NCBI GenBank assembly: GCA_964555685.1
Contig: CAZKTO010000004.1
Span: forward strand, 10,858-74,857
Direction: 5' to 3'
From: an uncultured Dehalococcoidia bacterium
Lineage (GTDB): Bacteria > Chloroflexota > Dehalococcoidia > SHYB01
Length of the DNA stretch: 64,000 bases
The position numbers and the translations under genes are program-made. The notes under the pieces were generated by a model, which ran no database searches, was not told the DNA's origin, and worked only from the letters and a program-made list of their open reading frames with translations. This document shows positions 7,587 to 27,342 of this stretch, in pieces. Positions within the stretch are counted from its first letter, which is position 1. Every line of letters starts with the position of its first letter.

Positions 7587-8624
7587 ATGCCAACCAAAAC
7601 CGCTGATAGAACCGGGACCACCCTCGACCGCCTCGGGCGGCCGCTGCACGACCTGCGCATCTCGGTCACGGACCGGTGCAACTTCCGCTGCACCTACTGC
7701 ATGCCCGCCGAGGTCTACGGCGAGCGCTACGAGTTCCTCCCCAAGCGCGAGATCCTCACCTACGAGGAGATCGCCCGCGTCGCCCGGCTCTTCGTCCGGC
7801 TGGGCACGCGCAAGATCAGGCTCACGGGCGGTGAGCCCCTGGTCCGCGAGGGCCTCGAGCGCCTGGTCGCCCTGCTGGCGCCCATCGAGGGCCTGGAAGA
7901 CCTGGCCGTGACCACCAACGGCTACCTCCTGGCCGCCAAGGCCCGCGCCCTCAAGGACGCCGGGCTCCAGCGCATCACGGTGAGCCTGGACACGCTGGAC
8001 GACGCCATCTTCGGCCAGATGAACGGCCGCGGCTTCGGCGTCCAGCGCGTGCTGGAGGGGATCGAGGCGGCCCGGGAGGCGGGCATGACGCCCGTCAAGG
8101 TGGACGCCGTCGTCCAGCGGGGCGTCAACGATCACACCCTCGCCGGCCTGGCCCGCCACTTCAAGGGGACGGGCGTCATCGTCCGCTTCATCGAGTTCAT
8201 GGACGTGGGCAACCTCAACGGCTGGCGCCTCGACCAGGTCGTCCCGTCAGCGGAGGTCGTGGCCCGCATCAACGCCGTCTTTCCCATCGAGCCCGCCGAG
8301 CCCAACTACTTCGGCGAGGTGGCCGAGCGCTGGCGCTACCGGGACGGCTCGGGCGAGATCGGCGTCATCTCATCGGTGACGCAGCCCTTCTGCCATAGCT
8401 GCACGCGCGCGCGGCTTTCGCCCAAGGGCGAGGTCTACACCTGCCTCTTCGGTACCCAGGGGCGCGACGTGCGCGGGCCGCTGCGCGCTGGGGCCTCGGA
8501 CGACGACCTGCTCTCGCTCCTCTCCGGCGTCTGGGCCGCCCGGACCGACCGCTACTCCGAAATCCGCGCCTCCCTCACGCGGCCCGCCGGCAAGAAGATC
8601 GAGATGTACCAGATCGGCGGGTAG
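7587..8624 (+). CDS. moaA: GTP 3',8-cyclase MoaA (radical SAM, molybdopterin biosynthesis)
   Basis: [18 protein letters not shown] (CxxxCxxC), LTGGEPLVR, and the C-terminal second-cluster cysteines ([20 protein letters not shown]). Confidence 0.9.
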
Positions 8625-16063: not shown

Positions 16064-16097
16064 TCAGCGCCTCCCATCCAGGACCGTGTTATTGCGG

Positions 16098-16141
16098 GCC
16101 CCTTCCCCAAAGACGAAGGAAGGGGGATCAGGGGTTAGGTC
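16098..16141 (+). repeat. Half type-A element (degenerate hairpin 2 plus GGGGTTAGGTC)
   Basis: GCCCCTTCCCCaaagacgaaGGAAGGGGGATCAGGGGTTAGGTC. Confidence 0.6.
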
Positions 16142-16144
16142 GTT

Positions 16145-17011
16145 CTACTGCCCCCATCGGCCCGAGGGCGTCATCCGCCAGCCGGCCGCGGCTATCGTCC
16201 CGCCGCCGACGTGGATCGTCTCGCCCGTAATCCACTCGGACAGGTCCGAGGCCAGGAAGATCGCCGCCCCGCCGAAGTCCTCCGGGTAGCCCCGGCGGCT
16301 CAGGGGCACCTGGGGCAGCGGCTCCTTCGAGTCGAAGAGGGGAGCCATCTCCAGGATGCCCGGCGTCACCGTCACGTCCGGCGCGATCTCGTTGACGCGG
16401 ATGCCCAGCGGCGCCACCTCGAGCGCCAGGCTCTTGGTGAAGTTCGCTAGCCCGGCCTTCGCTGCCGCGTAGGGCGTGTACCCCGGCGCCCCGCGGTACG
16501 CCTCGATAGTCGTGAAGTTGATGATGCAGCCCGCCCCCTCTCCGGCACGGAGAGGGGGCGGGCTGCCTGCGGCGGGCCGGGGATGAGGGTAGCCCTTGGT
16601 CCTGGCGGCTTGCATGGCCCGCACGGCGCCCCGGCTCCAGCGCATCGCCTGGACCAGATTCAGGTCGATGGCGTTCATCCACTCCTCGTCCGTCATCGCC
16701 ATGAAGTCCTTGTGGATCGTCCCGCCCAGGTTGTTCACCATGATGTCCAGCCGGCCCAGCTGGCGCACCGTCTCCCCGATGACGCGGTCCACCGTGGCCT
16801 GCTGGCGGCAGTCGGCGGCGAAGGCCAGCGCCTTCCGGCCCAGGGCCCGCACCTCCTGCGCCGCCTCCTGGAGCTCCCGCTCCTTCAGATCAACCAGCAC
16901 GATGTGGGCGCCGAAGGCGGCCAGGCACCGGGCCACCGCCCGCCCGATCCCTCCCGCCGACCCAGTCACGATGGCGACGCGGTCCGTGATCAGGGCCTTT
17001 TGCGGATTCAT
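16145..17011 (-). CDS. SDR oxidoreductase, tandem paralogue 1, carrying a 21-aa repeat-derived insertion
   Basis: VTGSAGGIGRAV, YAAAKAG. It is collinear with 17031..17876 except for the extra YPHPRPAAGSPPPLRAGEGAG. Confidence 0.85.
   Translation of the reverse strand: MNPQKALITDRVAIVTGSAGGIGRAVARCLAAFGAHIVLVDLKERELQEAAQEVRALGRKALAFAADCRQQATVDRVIGETVRQLGRLDIMVNNLGGTIHKDFMAMTDEEWMNAIDLNLVQAMRWSRGAVRAMQAARTKGYPHPRPAAGSPPPLRAGEGAGCIINFTTIEAYRGAPGYTPYAAAKAGLANFTKSLALEVAPLGIRVNEIAPDVTVTPGILEMAPLFDSKEPLPQVPLSRRGYPEDFGGAAIFLASDLSEWITGETIHVGGGTIAAAGWRMTPSGRWGQ
16529..16591. repeat. 63-nt in-frame insertion inside the SDR CDS, containing a perfect 15-nt-arm palindrome (16529..16563: GCCCGCCCCCTCTCC ggcac GGAGAGGGGGCGGGC)
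   Basis: The hairpin core CCCCTCTCCGGCACGGAGAGGGG is identical to hairpin 1 of the 18000 copy. The paralogue lacks exactly these 21 codons. Confidence 0.85.
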
Positions 17012-17030
17012 GACGCTCCCTTCCCTCTGT

Positions 17031-17876
17031 TCACTCCAGTGGCCTGCCCGAGTAGACCTGGGCGCTCACGCCGTCGGTGCTCCAGTGGCCCGAGGGCGTC
17101 AGCTTCCAGCCGGAGGCGGCGTTGGTCCCGCCGCCCACGTGGATCGTCTCGCCCGTCACCCACTCGGACATCTCCGAGGCGAGGTAGAGGGCGGCGCCGG
17201 CGTGGTCCTCGGGCCGGCCCCGGCGGCGCATGGGGATGTGGCTTGGGATGCCCGCCTTCTCCCAGTCCGGCCGCAGCTTGAGGACGCCGGGAGTCACCGT
17301 CGCGTCGGGCGCGATGGCGTTGACCCGGATGCCCCACGGCGAGAGCTCGAGGGCCATCGTCTTGGTGAAGTTGGCCAGGCCGGCCTTGGCGGCGGCGTAG
17401 GGCGCGTAGCCCGGCGCCGCCCGGTACGCCTCGATCGTCGTCACGTTGATGATGGAGCCTCGCGTCTTCCGCTCCATCATCACCTGAGCCGCCGCCTTCG
17501 TCCACCGGAACGCCTGGACCAGGTTCTTGTCCACCGACTCCATCCACTGGTCCTCCGTCATCTCCATGAAGAGCTTCCGGATGGAGCCGCCGGCGTTGTT
17601 GACCATCACGTCGATCCGTCCCAGCTCCCGGACCGTCTCCGCGATGACCCGCTCGACGGTCGTCTGCTGGCGGCAGTCGGCGGCGAAGGCCAGGGCCTTC
17701 CTCCCATGCCCGCGCACCTCGCGCGCCGCCTCCTGGAGCTCCTGGCTCTTGATGTCCACCATGACCACGTGCGCCCCGTACTCGGCGTAGCAGCCCGCGA
17801 TGGCGCGGCCGATCCCTCCGGCGGCCCCGGTGACGATGGCGACGCGGTCGGTCAGCACGGCCTTCTCTTGGTACAT
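17031..17876 (-). CDS. SDR oxidoreductase, tandem paralogue 2
   Basis: VTGAAGGIGRAI, NNAG, YAAAKAG. It is highly similar to 16145..17011. Confidence 0.9.
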   Translation of the reverse strand: MYQEKAVLTDRVAIVTGAAGGIGRAIAGCYAEYGAHVVMVDIKSQELQEAAREVRGHGRKALAFAADCRQQTTVERVIAETVRELGRIDVMVNNAGGSIRKLFMEMTEDQWMESVDKNLVQAFRWTKAAAQVMMERKTRGSIINVTTIEAYRAAPGYAPYAAAKAGLANFTKTMALELSPWGIRVNAIAPDATVTPGVLKLRPDWEKAGIPSHIPMRRRGRPEDHAGAALYLASEMSEWVTGETIHVGGGTNAASGWKLTPSGHWSTDGVSAQVYSGRPLE

Positions 17877-17999: not shown

Positions 18000-18114
18000 C
18001 TGCCCTCTCCCCCGTCCCCTCTCCGGCACGGAGAGGGGCGCACCGTATCCCCCTTCCCTCGCAGGGAAGGGGGCCAGGAGGTTAGGGCCGGTCTTGCCAC
18101 CAGAGTTTAGGCAT
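18000..18114 (+). repeat. Type-A bipartite element (18000..18089) plus a 25-nt tail identical to the 5' end of the thiolase-like gene
   Basis: CTGCCCTCTCCCCCGTCCCCTCTCCggcacGGAGAGGGGCGCACCGTATCCCCCTTCCCtcgcaGGGAAGGGGGCCAGGAGGTTAGGGCC, then GGTCTTGCCACCAGAGTTTAGGCAT. Confidence 0.9.
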
Positions 18115-24762: not shown

Positions 24763-27342
24763 TCACTGCAACACCCCCAGCGCATCCAGCTCGTCGACGC
24801 GCCGGGGCGGCAGGCCCAGCTCCCGCTCCAGCGCATCCCGCGTGTGCTCGCCCAGGAGCGGCGTCCCCCGTTGCACCACGTGCGGCGAGCGGCTCATCAG
24901 CCATGGCGGGCGCATGCTCACCGGCCGGCCCAGCTTGGCGTGATCGAGGGTCAGGAAGAGCCCGCGCTCCTTCAGGTGCGGGTCCTCGGCGATGCGCCGG
25001 TTGCTCATGGACGGCATGGCGGCCACGCCCGCCGATTGGAGCAGCCGCGTCACCTCGTCGGGCGTCTGGCCCCCCGTCCACGCCGCCACCACCGCCTCCA
25101 GCTCGCTCTGGCGCTGGCGGCGGCCGGCCGCCGTCGCGAACCGGGCGTCGCGGGCCAGGTCCTCGCGGCCCATGGCCAGGCACAGGGCCCGCCACTCCTC
25201 GTCGGTCGCCACGGCGACGCTCACCCACTGGTCAGACCCCGACACGTCGGGGCGCCCCGCGCACCGGAAAACGCCGTGGGGCGCCATCCGCGGGTGGCCG
25301 TTGCCCAGCCGCGGCGGGAGCCGGTTCGCCAGGCCGACCTCGGCGAAGGTGTGCCCGAAGAGGCAGGCGATGGAGCCGTACGAGGCCATGTCGATGTGGC
25401 GCCCCCGGCCGGTGCGCGCTCGTTCCAGGAGCGCCGCCAGGACCGCCAGGGCGATGGTGGCCCCCGCTCGCATGTCCAGAGGCAACTGGAGGAGCGCCGG
25501 CGGGCCGTCCGGGTAGCCCGTGATGGCGCTGAGCCCGCTCAGCCCGGAGAAGACGGCGGCGACGCCGGGGTAATCTTTCTGGGGCCCCGCCGGGCCGAAG
25601 CCCGAGGCCGAGACGGTGACGATCGAGGGGTTCATCTGGCGGAGCACGCCGTGCCCCAGGCCCAGGTCCTCCATGACCCTTGGCCGCATGTTGTCCACCA
25701 CCGCATCGGAGATGCGGACCAGGTCGTGCACCAGCTCTAGCGCCTCGGGCCGCTTCACGTCCAGCGCCACGCTGCGCTTGTTCCAGTTGAGCGCGTGAAA
25801 GTCAGGCGAGGCATCGGGGTCGCTCCCGGACACGACGACGAAGTCCAGGTAGCGGGCGATGTCCAGCCGCTGGCGCGACTCGATCTTGATGACGTCCGCC
25901 CCCAGGCATGCCAGCAGGTGCGTGGCGATGGGCCCGGCGGCCACCCACGTGAACTCGACGATGCGATAGCCCGCCAGCGGTAGAAGGGGACCCTTCGGCA
26001 AGATAGGTCCTTCCCCTTCGAGACTCAGGGTCAGGACTCGCTTCGCTCGGCTCAGGGCAGGCTCTGACCCCACCCCGACAGGTTGGGCCGACTCGCCGGC
26101 CTTCCCGGCACGGGAAGGGGGCAGCCGTGGACCCGGTCCCTGGCCTTCGGCCGGCCCCTCGCCTTTGGGGGAGGAGAGGCCGAACTCGTCCAGGACCTGC
26201 TCCGTATGCTCGCCCAGACGCGGCGCACGCGGAAGGAGGCCGCTGGCGCCGGGCAGGAAAGAGAGGGGCCTGGGCAGCGTCACGCGACGCCCGCCGGGCG
26301 CCTCGACCTCGCCGAAGAGGCCGATGGCCTTCGCCTGGGGCGCCTTGAGCACCTTGTCCGCCGTGGGGAACCAGGCCACGAGCATCCCCCGGCTCTCCAG
26401 CATCTCGAAGACCTCTTCCCCCGTCTTGTCCGAGAGCCAGGCGATGATCTCCGGGTGGACGGCGGGCAGGTTCGCCCGGCGCTGGGCCGCGGTGACGAAG
26501 CGCGGCTCCTTCACCCACTCGGACCGGCCCATGAGCGCGGCCAGCCGCTCCCACTGCTCCTGCCGGTGAAAGGTCAGGAAGACCCACCCGTCCTTGCACG
26601 GGAAGAGCGTCGTGTTGGGCACCTCAACGGTGTAGCGGCCCGAGAGCTGGCCGCGGTTCAGCCAGAGGTCCATGGCGATCCGGGAGGCGTAGACCTCGGC
26701 CTCCCAGCGCGACAGGTCGATGTGCTGGCCGGCGCCGTGGGCGTCCCGGACGAAGAGGGCGGCCAGCACCGCGTCGGCGGCGAGCAGCCCCGCCGTGTAG
26801 TCGGCGATGAGGCCGCCCGCCTGCATCGGCGGACGCCGCGCGTAGACCTGCGGCGGGTGTCCGATGACCGGGGGCAGCATGTACGCCTCGCCGCCCGCGT
26901 GGGCGATGGTGAGGCTCTCGGCCCGCCATCCGGCGCAGGGGCCCGTCTGCCCGAAGGGCGTGATGGAGACCTGGACTAGCGACGGATTACCGGCGCTCAA
27001 CGACGCGTAGTCGAGCCCGAGACGCCGGGCCTCCTCCGGCGCCAGGTCGTCGATGAGCACACCGGCCCGGGCGGCCAGACGGCGCAGGGTCTCGCGCCCC
27101 TCGGCGCCGCGCCAGTCGAGGGCCACGCTCTCCTTGCCGGCGTTGCAGTAGAGGTAGAGCCCGCTGCACTCGGGGTCGGGGCCCGTGAGGGGGAAGGGCC
27201 CGTGCGCCCGCGACGGGTCGCCGCCGGTGGGCTCCTCGATCTTGACGACCCGCGCGCCCAGCTCGGCCAGCAGCCGCCCGCAGTAGGGCCCGGCCACGTG
27301 GGAGGCGAGCTCCAGGACAAGCGCGCCGGCTAGCGGTTGCAC
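24763..27342 (-). CDS. 859-aa tandem fusion of two family-III (CaiB/BaiF) CoA-transferase modules joined by a ~55-aa repeat-derived linker
   Basis: Module 1 starts MQPLAGALVLELASHVAGPYCGRLLAELGARVVKIE. Module 2 starts ...LPLAGYRIVEFTWVAAGPIATHLLACLGADVIKIE. There is no stop between them. The linker DNA (~26002..26175) contains GGCTCAGGGCAGGCTCTGA-type repeat sequence. Confidence 0.8.
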   Translation of the reverse strand: MQPLAGALVLELASHVAGPYCGRLLAELGARVVKIEEPTGGDPSRAHGPFPLTGPDPECSGLYLYCNAGKESVALDWRGAEGRETLRRLAARAGVLIDDLAPEEARRLGLDYASLSAGNPSLVQVSITPFGQTGPCAGWRAESLTIAHAGGEAYMLPPVIGHPPQVYARRPPMQAGGLIADYTAGLLAADAVLAALFVRDAHGAGQHIDLSRWEAEVYASRIAMDLWLNRGQLSGRYTVEVPNTTLFPCKDGWVFLTFHRQEQWERLAALMGRSEWVKEPRFVTAAQRRANLPAVHPEIIAWLSDKTGEEVFEMLESRGMLVAWFPTADKVLKAPQAKAIGLFGEVEAPGGRRVTLPRPLSFLPGASGLLPRAPRLGEHTEQVLDEFGLSSPKGEGPAEGQGPGPRLPPSRAGKAGESAQPVGVGSEPALSRAKRVLTLSLEGEGPILPKGPLLPLAGYRIVEFTWVAAGPIATHLLACLGADVIKIESRQRLDIARYLDFVVVSGSDPDASPDFHALNWNKRSVALDVKRPEALELVHDLVRISDAVVDNMRPRVMEDLGLGHGVLRQMNPSIVTVSASGFGPAGPQKDYPGVAAVFSGLSGLSAITGYPDGPPALLQLPLDMRAGATIALAVLAALLERARTGRGRHIDMASYGSIACLFGHTFAEVGLANRLPPRLGNGHPRMAPHGVFRCAGRPDVSGSDQWVSVAVATDEEWRALCLAMGREDLARDARFATAAGRRQRQSELEAVVAAWTGGQTPDEVTRLLQSAGVAAMPSMSNRRIAEDPHLKERGLFLTLDHAKLGRPVSMRPPWLMSRSPHVVQRGTPLLGEHTRDALERELGLPPRRVDELDALGVLQ

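Follow-up and report, generated by a model that had tools for sequence, protein, structure and literature searches.

A G+C-rich hairpin repeat read in frame as a predicted surface loop of a short-chain dehydrogenase/reductase

Two neighbouring genes in the 64,000-nt stretch of DNA analysed here (the window) encode short-chain dehydrogenases/reductases (SDRs), one of which carries a palindromic segment that the other lacks. This raises the question of whether the segment is a native part of the enzyme or a repeat that has entered the gene, and of what the protein makes of it. The two genes, SDR_A and SDR_B, had been described in the initial annotation as collinear tandem paralogues, the former interrupted by 63 nt encoding 21 residues. 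BLASTP bears this out: the two proteins are 61% identical and their alignment contains a single gap of exactly 21 residues, which corresponds to Y141–G161 of SDR_A and to positions 16529–16591 of the window. The length of the segment is a multiple of three (21 codons) and it contains no in-frame stop, so that SDR_A stays open; its reading frame has neither stops nor frameshifts over the whole 288-residue ORF. Pfam assigns SDR_A to adh_short_C2 (1.3e-51) and adh_short (3e-43), both matches being broken in two at the insert, and the matches of the same two families to SDR_B are unbroken, one stretch each. The insert is located 20 residues ahead of the catalytic Tyr181-x3-Lys185, that is, shortly before this segment, as originally noted.

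The comparison with orthologous SDRs, which the annotation had proposed as a check, yielded a site without the insert. A search of 5.8 billion proteins returned a single close orthologue, P0002, which has 267 residues (288 − 21) and is 84–85% identical to SDR_A outside the gap. Its contig (L016; NCBI GCA_964373685.1) is syntenic with the window, with genes for an amidohydrolase, SDR_B, SDR_A, a 231-aa SDR and CoA-transferases, and its empty site reads ...ACCGGGGGCTGCATC..., compared with ...ACCAAGGGC(63 nt)TGCATC... at the filled site of the window. In a 60-sequence alignment of SDR_A and 59 homologues (A2, also the input for AlphaFold2), 59/59 homologues have 3–4 residues where SDR_A has 25, and the SDR homologues from nine relatives of the same family and class all align with the 21-residue gap. 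The annotation had allowed for the segment being native, in which case orthologues in repeat-free genomes would carry it as well; 40 relatives hold 0–7 copies of the repeat each, which makes them effectively repeat-free, and the SDR homologues examined in such relatives are devoid of the segment. In L016, most intergenic spacers of the SDR locus do carry the repeat family, at positions not orthologous to those of the window; both lineages therefore possess the family, and only this one acquired a copy at the SDR site. The nearest named homologues of SDR_A come from Chloroflexi/Dehalococcoidia metagenome-assembled genomes, and a scan of the genome collection with SDR_A returned distant homologues only (≤38% identity).

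The filled allele was found once more, in a JGI metagenome contig (L017, JGI 3300010391, 4183 nt) that differs from the window at 11 positions (99.74% identity) and in which the insert and its junctions are identical. Two of the differences fall within SDR_A, one of them being non-synonymous (I204F). When metagenomes were scanned for the sequence 3′ of the insert, exactly or in degenerate form, neither an empty allele of a near-identical strain nor a further filled allele came up. These sequence comparisons support the interpretation of the 63 nt as an insertion, not native SDR sequence.

The inserted DNA is a copy of a dispersed repeat. Its 23-nt core, CCCCTCTCCGGCACGGAGAGGGG, had been reported as identical to hairpin 1 of the copy near position 18000, and it does recur there with 0 mismatches (16535–16557 and 18016–18038). 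At ≤3 mismatches, the core is found at 11 sites in the window, compared with 0 in 100 shuffles; a similarity between insert and repeat by chance is excluded. The genome that contains the window is a metagenome-assembled draft of 3.03 Mb in 170 contigs (68% G+C, 5.5% contamination), and the hairpin 1 pattern CCCTCTCC-N3-8-GGAGAGGG occurs in 186 copies in this 3.03-Mb assembly. A stricter pattern, CCCCTCTCC-N5-GGAGAGGGG, has 85 copies in this genome against 0–7 in each of the 40 relatives and, judged by these counts, the abundance of hairpin 1 is a lineage-specific burst. Read in the plus-strand sense, the family unit is composed of a left terminus (CCCTC[T/A]CCCCC), hairpin 1, a variable hairpin 2 and a right terminus (GGGGG[T/A][G/T]AGGG), the latter being the inverted complement of the former. 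Hairpin 2 occurs in subfamily variants (GGCCCGCC..GGCGGGCC, CCCCCTTCCC..GGGAAGGGGG, GGCCTACGGCC, CCCCGAC..GTCGGGG and others) and looks modular, as if hairpin cassettes had been swapped. In the family alignment, its slot holds at least five unrelated stem sequences, each self-complementary and at the same position before the terminus. Hairpin-1 copies are overwhelmingly intergenic, with about 1% deep within genes, a bias that fits either purifying selection against most insertions into genes or a preference of the repeat for spacers as insertion sites.

The copy in SDR_A departs from the family unit at several points (Table 1). It had been annotated as a hairpin inserted into the gene; the insertion of a repeat is confirmed, but the inserted unit is more than a bare hairpin, comprising hairpin 1, a degraded hairpin 2 and the right terminus. 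The palindrome is perfect, as described, although its arms measure 19 nt instead of 15 (16526–16544 and 16548–16566, 100% complementary). The inner 12 bp of this stem are the family hairpin 1, and the outer 7 bp are formed between native GCAGCCC (codons GGC TGC on the coding strand) and repeat-internal GGGCTGC. Folded as RNA, the insert region reaches −60.1 kcal/mol (z = −5.5 versus shuffles). When hairpin 2 of the insert is compared in register with the copies on C65, C1:59707, C23 and C64, its 5′ arm shows two substitutions, reading GGGCTGCC instead of GGCCCGCC. Those two substitutions abolish hairpin 2 and let the arm pair with the native GGC TGC codons, so that the stem of hairpin 1, otherwise 12 bp long, reaches 19 perfect bp. 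This extension would fit quasi-palindrome correction, a known replication-slippage process that perfects palindromes without selection.

[quoted passage not shown] A direct repeat, AGCCC, flanks the insert with its two copies 63 nt apart, and the placement of the insert is exact only to within sliding along these 5 nt. In this single case the repeat may represent a target-site duplication or a microhomology; target-site duplications are not consistent at other copies of the family. The best genomic match of the insert is an intergenic copy at C65:2892–2951, which is 87% identical across 60 nt. The insert showed no sign of a known RNA family or a terminator: its Rfam search gave no match at E ≤ 1, and the T-run sought 3′ of the stem as a terminator signature was absent. 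An intein or intron was rejected, as 21 Pro/Gly-rich low-complexity residues are far too short and have no splicing motifs.

Table 1. Positions of the SDR genes, of the parts of the insert and of related features. Coordinates are those of the window unless a contig (C) is given.
Feature	Position	Strand	Description
SDR_A	16145–17011	minus	288 aa, insert-bearing classical SDR; ORF, Pfam, AlphaFold2, Foldseek
SDR_B	17031–17876	minus	281 aa, uninterrupted tandem paralogue; reference
Insert	16529–16591	minus	63 nt in frame, encodes Y141–G161 (YPHPRPAAGSPPPLRAGEGAG); gap versus paralogue, empty orthologue site
Perfect stem	16526–16566		19 bp, 3-nt loop; inverted-repeat search, RNA fold
Hairpin 1 core	16535–16557		CCCCTCTCC-GGCAC-GGAGAGGGG, identical to 18016–18038
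Degraded hairpin 2	16561–16578		GGCTGCC-TGC-GGCGGGCC versus family GGCCCGCC-NNN-GGCGGGCC; in-register comparison
Right terminus of repeat	16579–16591		GGGGATGAGGGTA; family consensus GGGGG[T/A][G/T]AGGG
Direct repeat AGCCC	16528–16532 (left), 16591–16595 (right)		63 nt apart; sequence, filled-versus-empty alignment
Full-length repeat copy	18002–18088	plus	Left terminus, hairpin 1 (loop GGCAC), hairpin 2 CCCCCTTCCC...GGGAAGGGGG, terminus GGAGGTTAGGG
Half copy	16096–16141	plus	Hairpin 2 and terminus GGGGTTAGGT; lies in the spacer that separates SDR_A from the next SDR gene
Double CoA-transferase ORF (~900 aa), linker	~26005–26067 (C4:36862–36924)		In-frame repeat-derived GSEPALSRAKRVLTLSLEGEGP; heuristic screen
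PurH (AICAR transformylase/IMP cyclohydrolase)	C5:54735–54790		~41 extra residues, 350–390 (...FEGSGSGLAESTLSLSKGSAQDMSGQARGPAPTRERSAQG...), from a different dispersed repeat (CTGAGTCTGTCGAAGGG type)
Class II ribonucleotide reductase (RNR)	C81:6923–6943 and 7713–7777		Two in-frame segments: YSPSRTGKGPGVRAAG (hairpin-2/GGGGTTAGGG copy) and PSTKPALSEAEGLRARPEPAEGAG
UbiD-family decarboxylase	C8:24202–24227		In-frame hairpin repeat copy
RecF	C38:6837–6879		In-frame hairpin repeat copy
PheT	C73:3516–3535		In-frame hairpin repeat copy
IS200/RAYT-like Y1 transposase gene	C137:568–1521		317 aa, HUH motif HVHLL; better of two Y1_Tnp matches

The place of the added residues on the Rossmann fold, which the annotation had suggested modelling, was obtained with AlphaFold2. 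The model of SDR_A has a mean pLDDT of 92.5 and a pTM of 0.90, and residues 139–161 are predicted as a low-confidence coil (pLDDT about 60, <50 at 141–143) between helix 108–138 (αE) and strand 162–166 (βE), the remainder being confidently folded (>90). The top Foldseek matches of the model are classical SDRs such as FabG/KduD, with a target-normalised TM of about 0.9. In the SDR topology, the αE–βE turn is situated along the N-terminal edge of the sheet at the centre of the fold, clear of the cofactor cleft, and αE belongs to the dimer interface. By prediction, the insert thus lies in a surface segment compatible with the SDR fold, to which it would add a Pro/Gly-rich, disordered surface loop of 21 residues.

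All the features of a classical SDR are present in SDR_A: the TGxxxGxG cofactor motif (T16-G17...G21-I22-G23), the NNAG motif (N93-N94-x-G96), Tyr-x3-Lys with the catalytic Y181 and K185, and the Rossmann fold, the motif residues being intact and invariant in both alignments A1 and A2. Compared with its orthologue, SDR_A has a dN/dS of 0.15 (dS 0.68) and is therefore under purifying selection on average, a value that covers the whole period since the split, from which the time after the insertion is not isolable, and that is silent on selection in that time. The ratios of two neighbouring SDR genes at the locus are similar (0.22 and 0.17). We infer that the enzyme remains functional.

SDR_A is accompanied in this genome by other genes with repeats in frame. 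A heuristic screen, which took repeat hairpins lying within long ORFs and required a coding-like GC3 pattern to either side, placed 2/186 hairpin-1 copies deep in coding ORFs, namely SDR_A and a LuxC-type acyl-CoA reductase. It also returned copies of sister families in frame in further genes, and it picked up the repeat-derived segment in the linker of a double CoA-transferase. The identities of LuxC, UbiD, class II RNR, PurH, RecF and PheT are confirmed by Pfam, with domain matches that are interrupted or stretched in RNR and PurH. None of 12 relatives drawn from the same family, order and class has the extra residues of PurH. In RNR, the second segment amounts to 24 extra residues (420–443), absent in the closest orthologue (G006). 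The repeat-derived peptides of UbiD, RecF and PheT read ...DLTPWPPSPRGKGGEGSG..., ...EEPRLVGAPDD... and ...VRPDMSGRY..., respectively. The LuxC copy sits in a loop of variable length and was rejected as a clean insertion like that of SDR_A.

In our judgement, the 63 nt quite probably represent an inserted passenger that the enzyme tolerates as a disordered loop on its surface. A lineage-specific copy of the high-copy, G+C-rich nested-palindrome repeat, truncated at one end, would have entered the SDR_A coding sequence after the split from the nearest sequenced relative. Translation would read through this copy and produce a Pro/Gly-rich, 21-residue loop in the αE–βE turn, which normally has 3–4 residues, and the loop would be a selfish or neutral DNA passenger rather than a functional module. 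It is unlikely, though worth serious consideration, that the insertion instead crippled SDR_A, a redundant paralogue turning into a pseudogene whose frame would still be open only through recency and the chance length of 63 nt. The adjoining paralogue, 61% identical, could cover the function of the gene, and translation could be impeded by the perfect G+C stem of 19 bp that the mRNA would form (−60 kcal/mol). A loop of 21 residues is unusual for a turn of 3–4 residues in 59/59 homologues, and one of the two differences from L017 in the gene, I204F, is non-synonymous. However, the sequence has no stops or frameshifts and retains every catalytic and cofactor motif, the full fold is predicted with high confidence, and the identical insert allele is carried by two slightly diverged strains. 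Comparable inserts are, moreover, tolerated by the indispensable PurH and RNR of the same genome.

A functional role of the insert appears very unlikely, be it that the loop serves as a novel surface for interaction or regulation, or that the hairpin acts in the mRNA as a processing/stability site or translational pause. The peptide is of low complexity (Pro/Gly) and low pLDDT, the insert is confined to one lineage, and the RNA has neither an Rfam match nor a terminator-like T-run. The 19-bp perfect stem, extended by two substitutions that destroy hairpin 2 and pair the arm with native codons, could reflect structural selection, but quasi-palindrome correction would give a perfect palindrome without it. 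That the segment is native SDR sequence, or an artefact of repeat collapse or mis-joining in the assembly, is scarcely credible and largely refuted by the sequences at hand: the orthologue site is empty, the segment is absent from all homologues, the flanks align with the paralogue codon by codon and the same junctions are found in the independently assembled JGI contig, which has 11 SNPs. The concern about assembly stems from the nature of the data, a MAG draft of 170 contigs with 5.5% contamination, in which repeats can mislead assemblers.

For the passenger insertion, the absence of one terminus makes a simple cut-or-copy transposition of this exact unit unlikely. A full copy may have been inserted and then have lost about 12–15 nt of its left terminus, perhaps restoring the frame, or a partial copy may have arrived by a non-transpositional path, via template switching or illegitimate recombination. 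The SDR_A copy and the copy at 18016–18038, 1.4 kb upstream, have the loop GGCAC in common, are in the same orientation and agree at 27/28 nt overall. This loop is rare (4/186 hairpin-1 copies); the probability that a random pair has a common loop is 1.9%, and 2/40 adjacent pairs within 2 kb share loops. The shared loop hints at a local donor or gene conversion, and is suggestive only.

No convincing mobiliser of the family was found among the Y1_Tnp and DUF559 genes of this genome. Neither of the two Y1_Tnp (RAYT-like) genes is flanked by the hairpin family. The one on C137 is bordered on both sides by a different inverted repeat, which contains GCAAATACGCATGCCTGACCCCAGCC and is unrelated to the hairpin family, and a RAYT as mobiliser was rejected on present evidence, the arrangement not being that of a REP/REPIN–RAYT system. 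Of five DUF559 nuclease genes, the one in the window is bracketed by the repeat, another two each have a single copy in their vicinity and the remaining two lack it there, so that any association of DUF559 with the repeat family appears weak. A phage vehicle was also rejected, with the hairpin-1 pattern occurring in merely 6 stretches among 2.9 million viral contigs.

The insertion of repeats in frame is a phenomenon already known from Rickettsia and other bacteria. The Rickettsia palindromic elements (RPEs) were reportedly described by Ogata et al. (2000, Science 290:347). These elements are dispersed palindromes situated in frame in unrelated metabolic and housekeeping genes, where they are read through as an extra peptide compatible with the fold; this behaviour defines them, and other small repeats are likewise reported to show it (PMC10969869; PMC3184786). 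Like RPEs and the related Wolbachia palindromic elements, the repeat in SDR_A is dispersed, palindromic, in frame, absent from orthologues and predicted to be compatible with the fold. Its behaviour is RPE-like in that it is multi-copy and hairpin-forming, keeps the frame (21 codons), has an empty counterpart site and occupies what is predicted to be a surface segment. Unlike RPEs, which measure about 105–150 nt, the unit is 54–90 nt long, very G+C-rich and provided with a swappable second hairpin. The host is free-living, high-GC and probably a member of the Chloroflexota rather than an obligate intracellular alphaproteobacterium, and only about 1% of hairpin-1 copies are deep in genes, whereas RPEs are frequently intragenic. 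The family is probably not homologous to RPEs, from which it is set apart by size, composition, host and the modular hairpin 2.

Other classes of small repeats resemble the family in part. With bacterial MITEs it shares small size, the non-coding nature, a high copy number, a mostly intergenic location and terminal inverted repeats at the level of the family (PMC10969869; PMC11602168). The SDR_A copy has a possible 5-nt flanking direct repeat, a single case that could be microhomology, but is without one terminal repeat, and neither a cognate transposase among the Y1_Tnp and DUF559 genes nor a parent insertion sequence was found. With REP/REPIN elements and their RAYTs it has in common G+C-rich extragenic palindromes in high copy number, some copies ending in GGGTAG (PMC3733652). 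In contrast to these elements, the GTAG tag is inconsistent, the units are nested and multi-hairpin with inverted termini, and the Y1_Tnp genes are not flanked by this family.

The case of SDR_A alone opens no new biological question. What it does provide is a filled site with a clean empty counterpart: the two loci are syntenic, their proteins are 84% identical and both lineages have the repeat family. It indicates that enzyme genes of free-living bacteria can take up small G+C-rich hairpin repeats, which would then be translated as predicted disordered loops, as happens with RPEs in Rickettsia. In protein predictions from metagenomes, such inserts split domain matches and inflate the apparent diversity of loops. 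They also point to turns at the protein surface where additions are tolerated, and the αE–βE turn of SDRs would be such a site if the enzyme is active. More tentatively, coding sequences of a free-living, high-GC lineage, probably of the Chloroflexota, may have been colonised in an RPE-like manner, with the SDR_A insert as one visible case, a possibility that we regard as rather doubtful at present. A modular nested-hairpin family, expanded more than tenfold in this lineage only, would have settled in the reading frames of several housekeeping genes (PurH, class II RNR, UbiD, LuxC, the CoA-transferase linker and possibly RecF/PheT). No transposase would be recognisable behind its spread, which may have proceeded by local template switching, and quasi-palindrome correction would then have recruited host codons into the stem. 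The spacer between SDR_B and SDR_A also differs between the two lineages, being 85 nt long with a hairpin repeat in L016 (2543–2628) and 19 nt long and repeat-free in the window (17012–17030).
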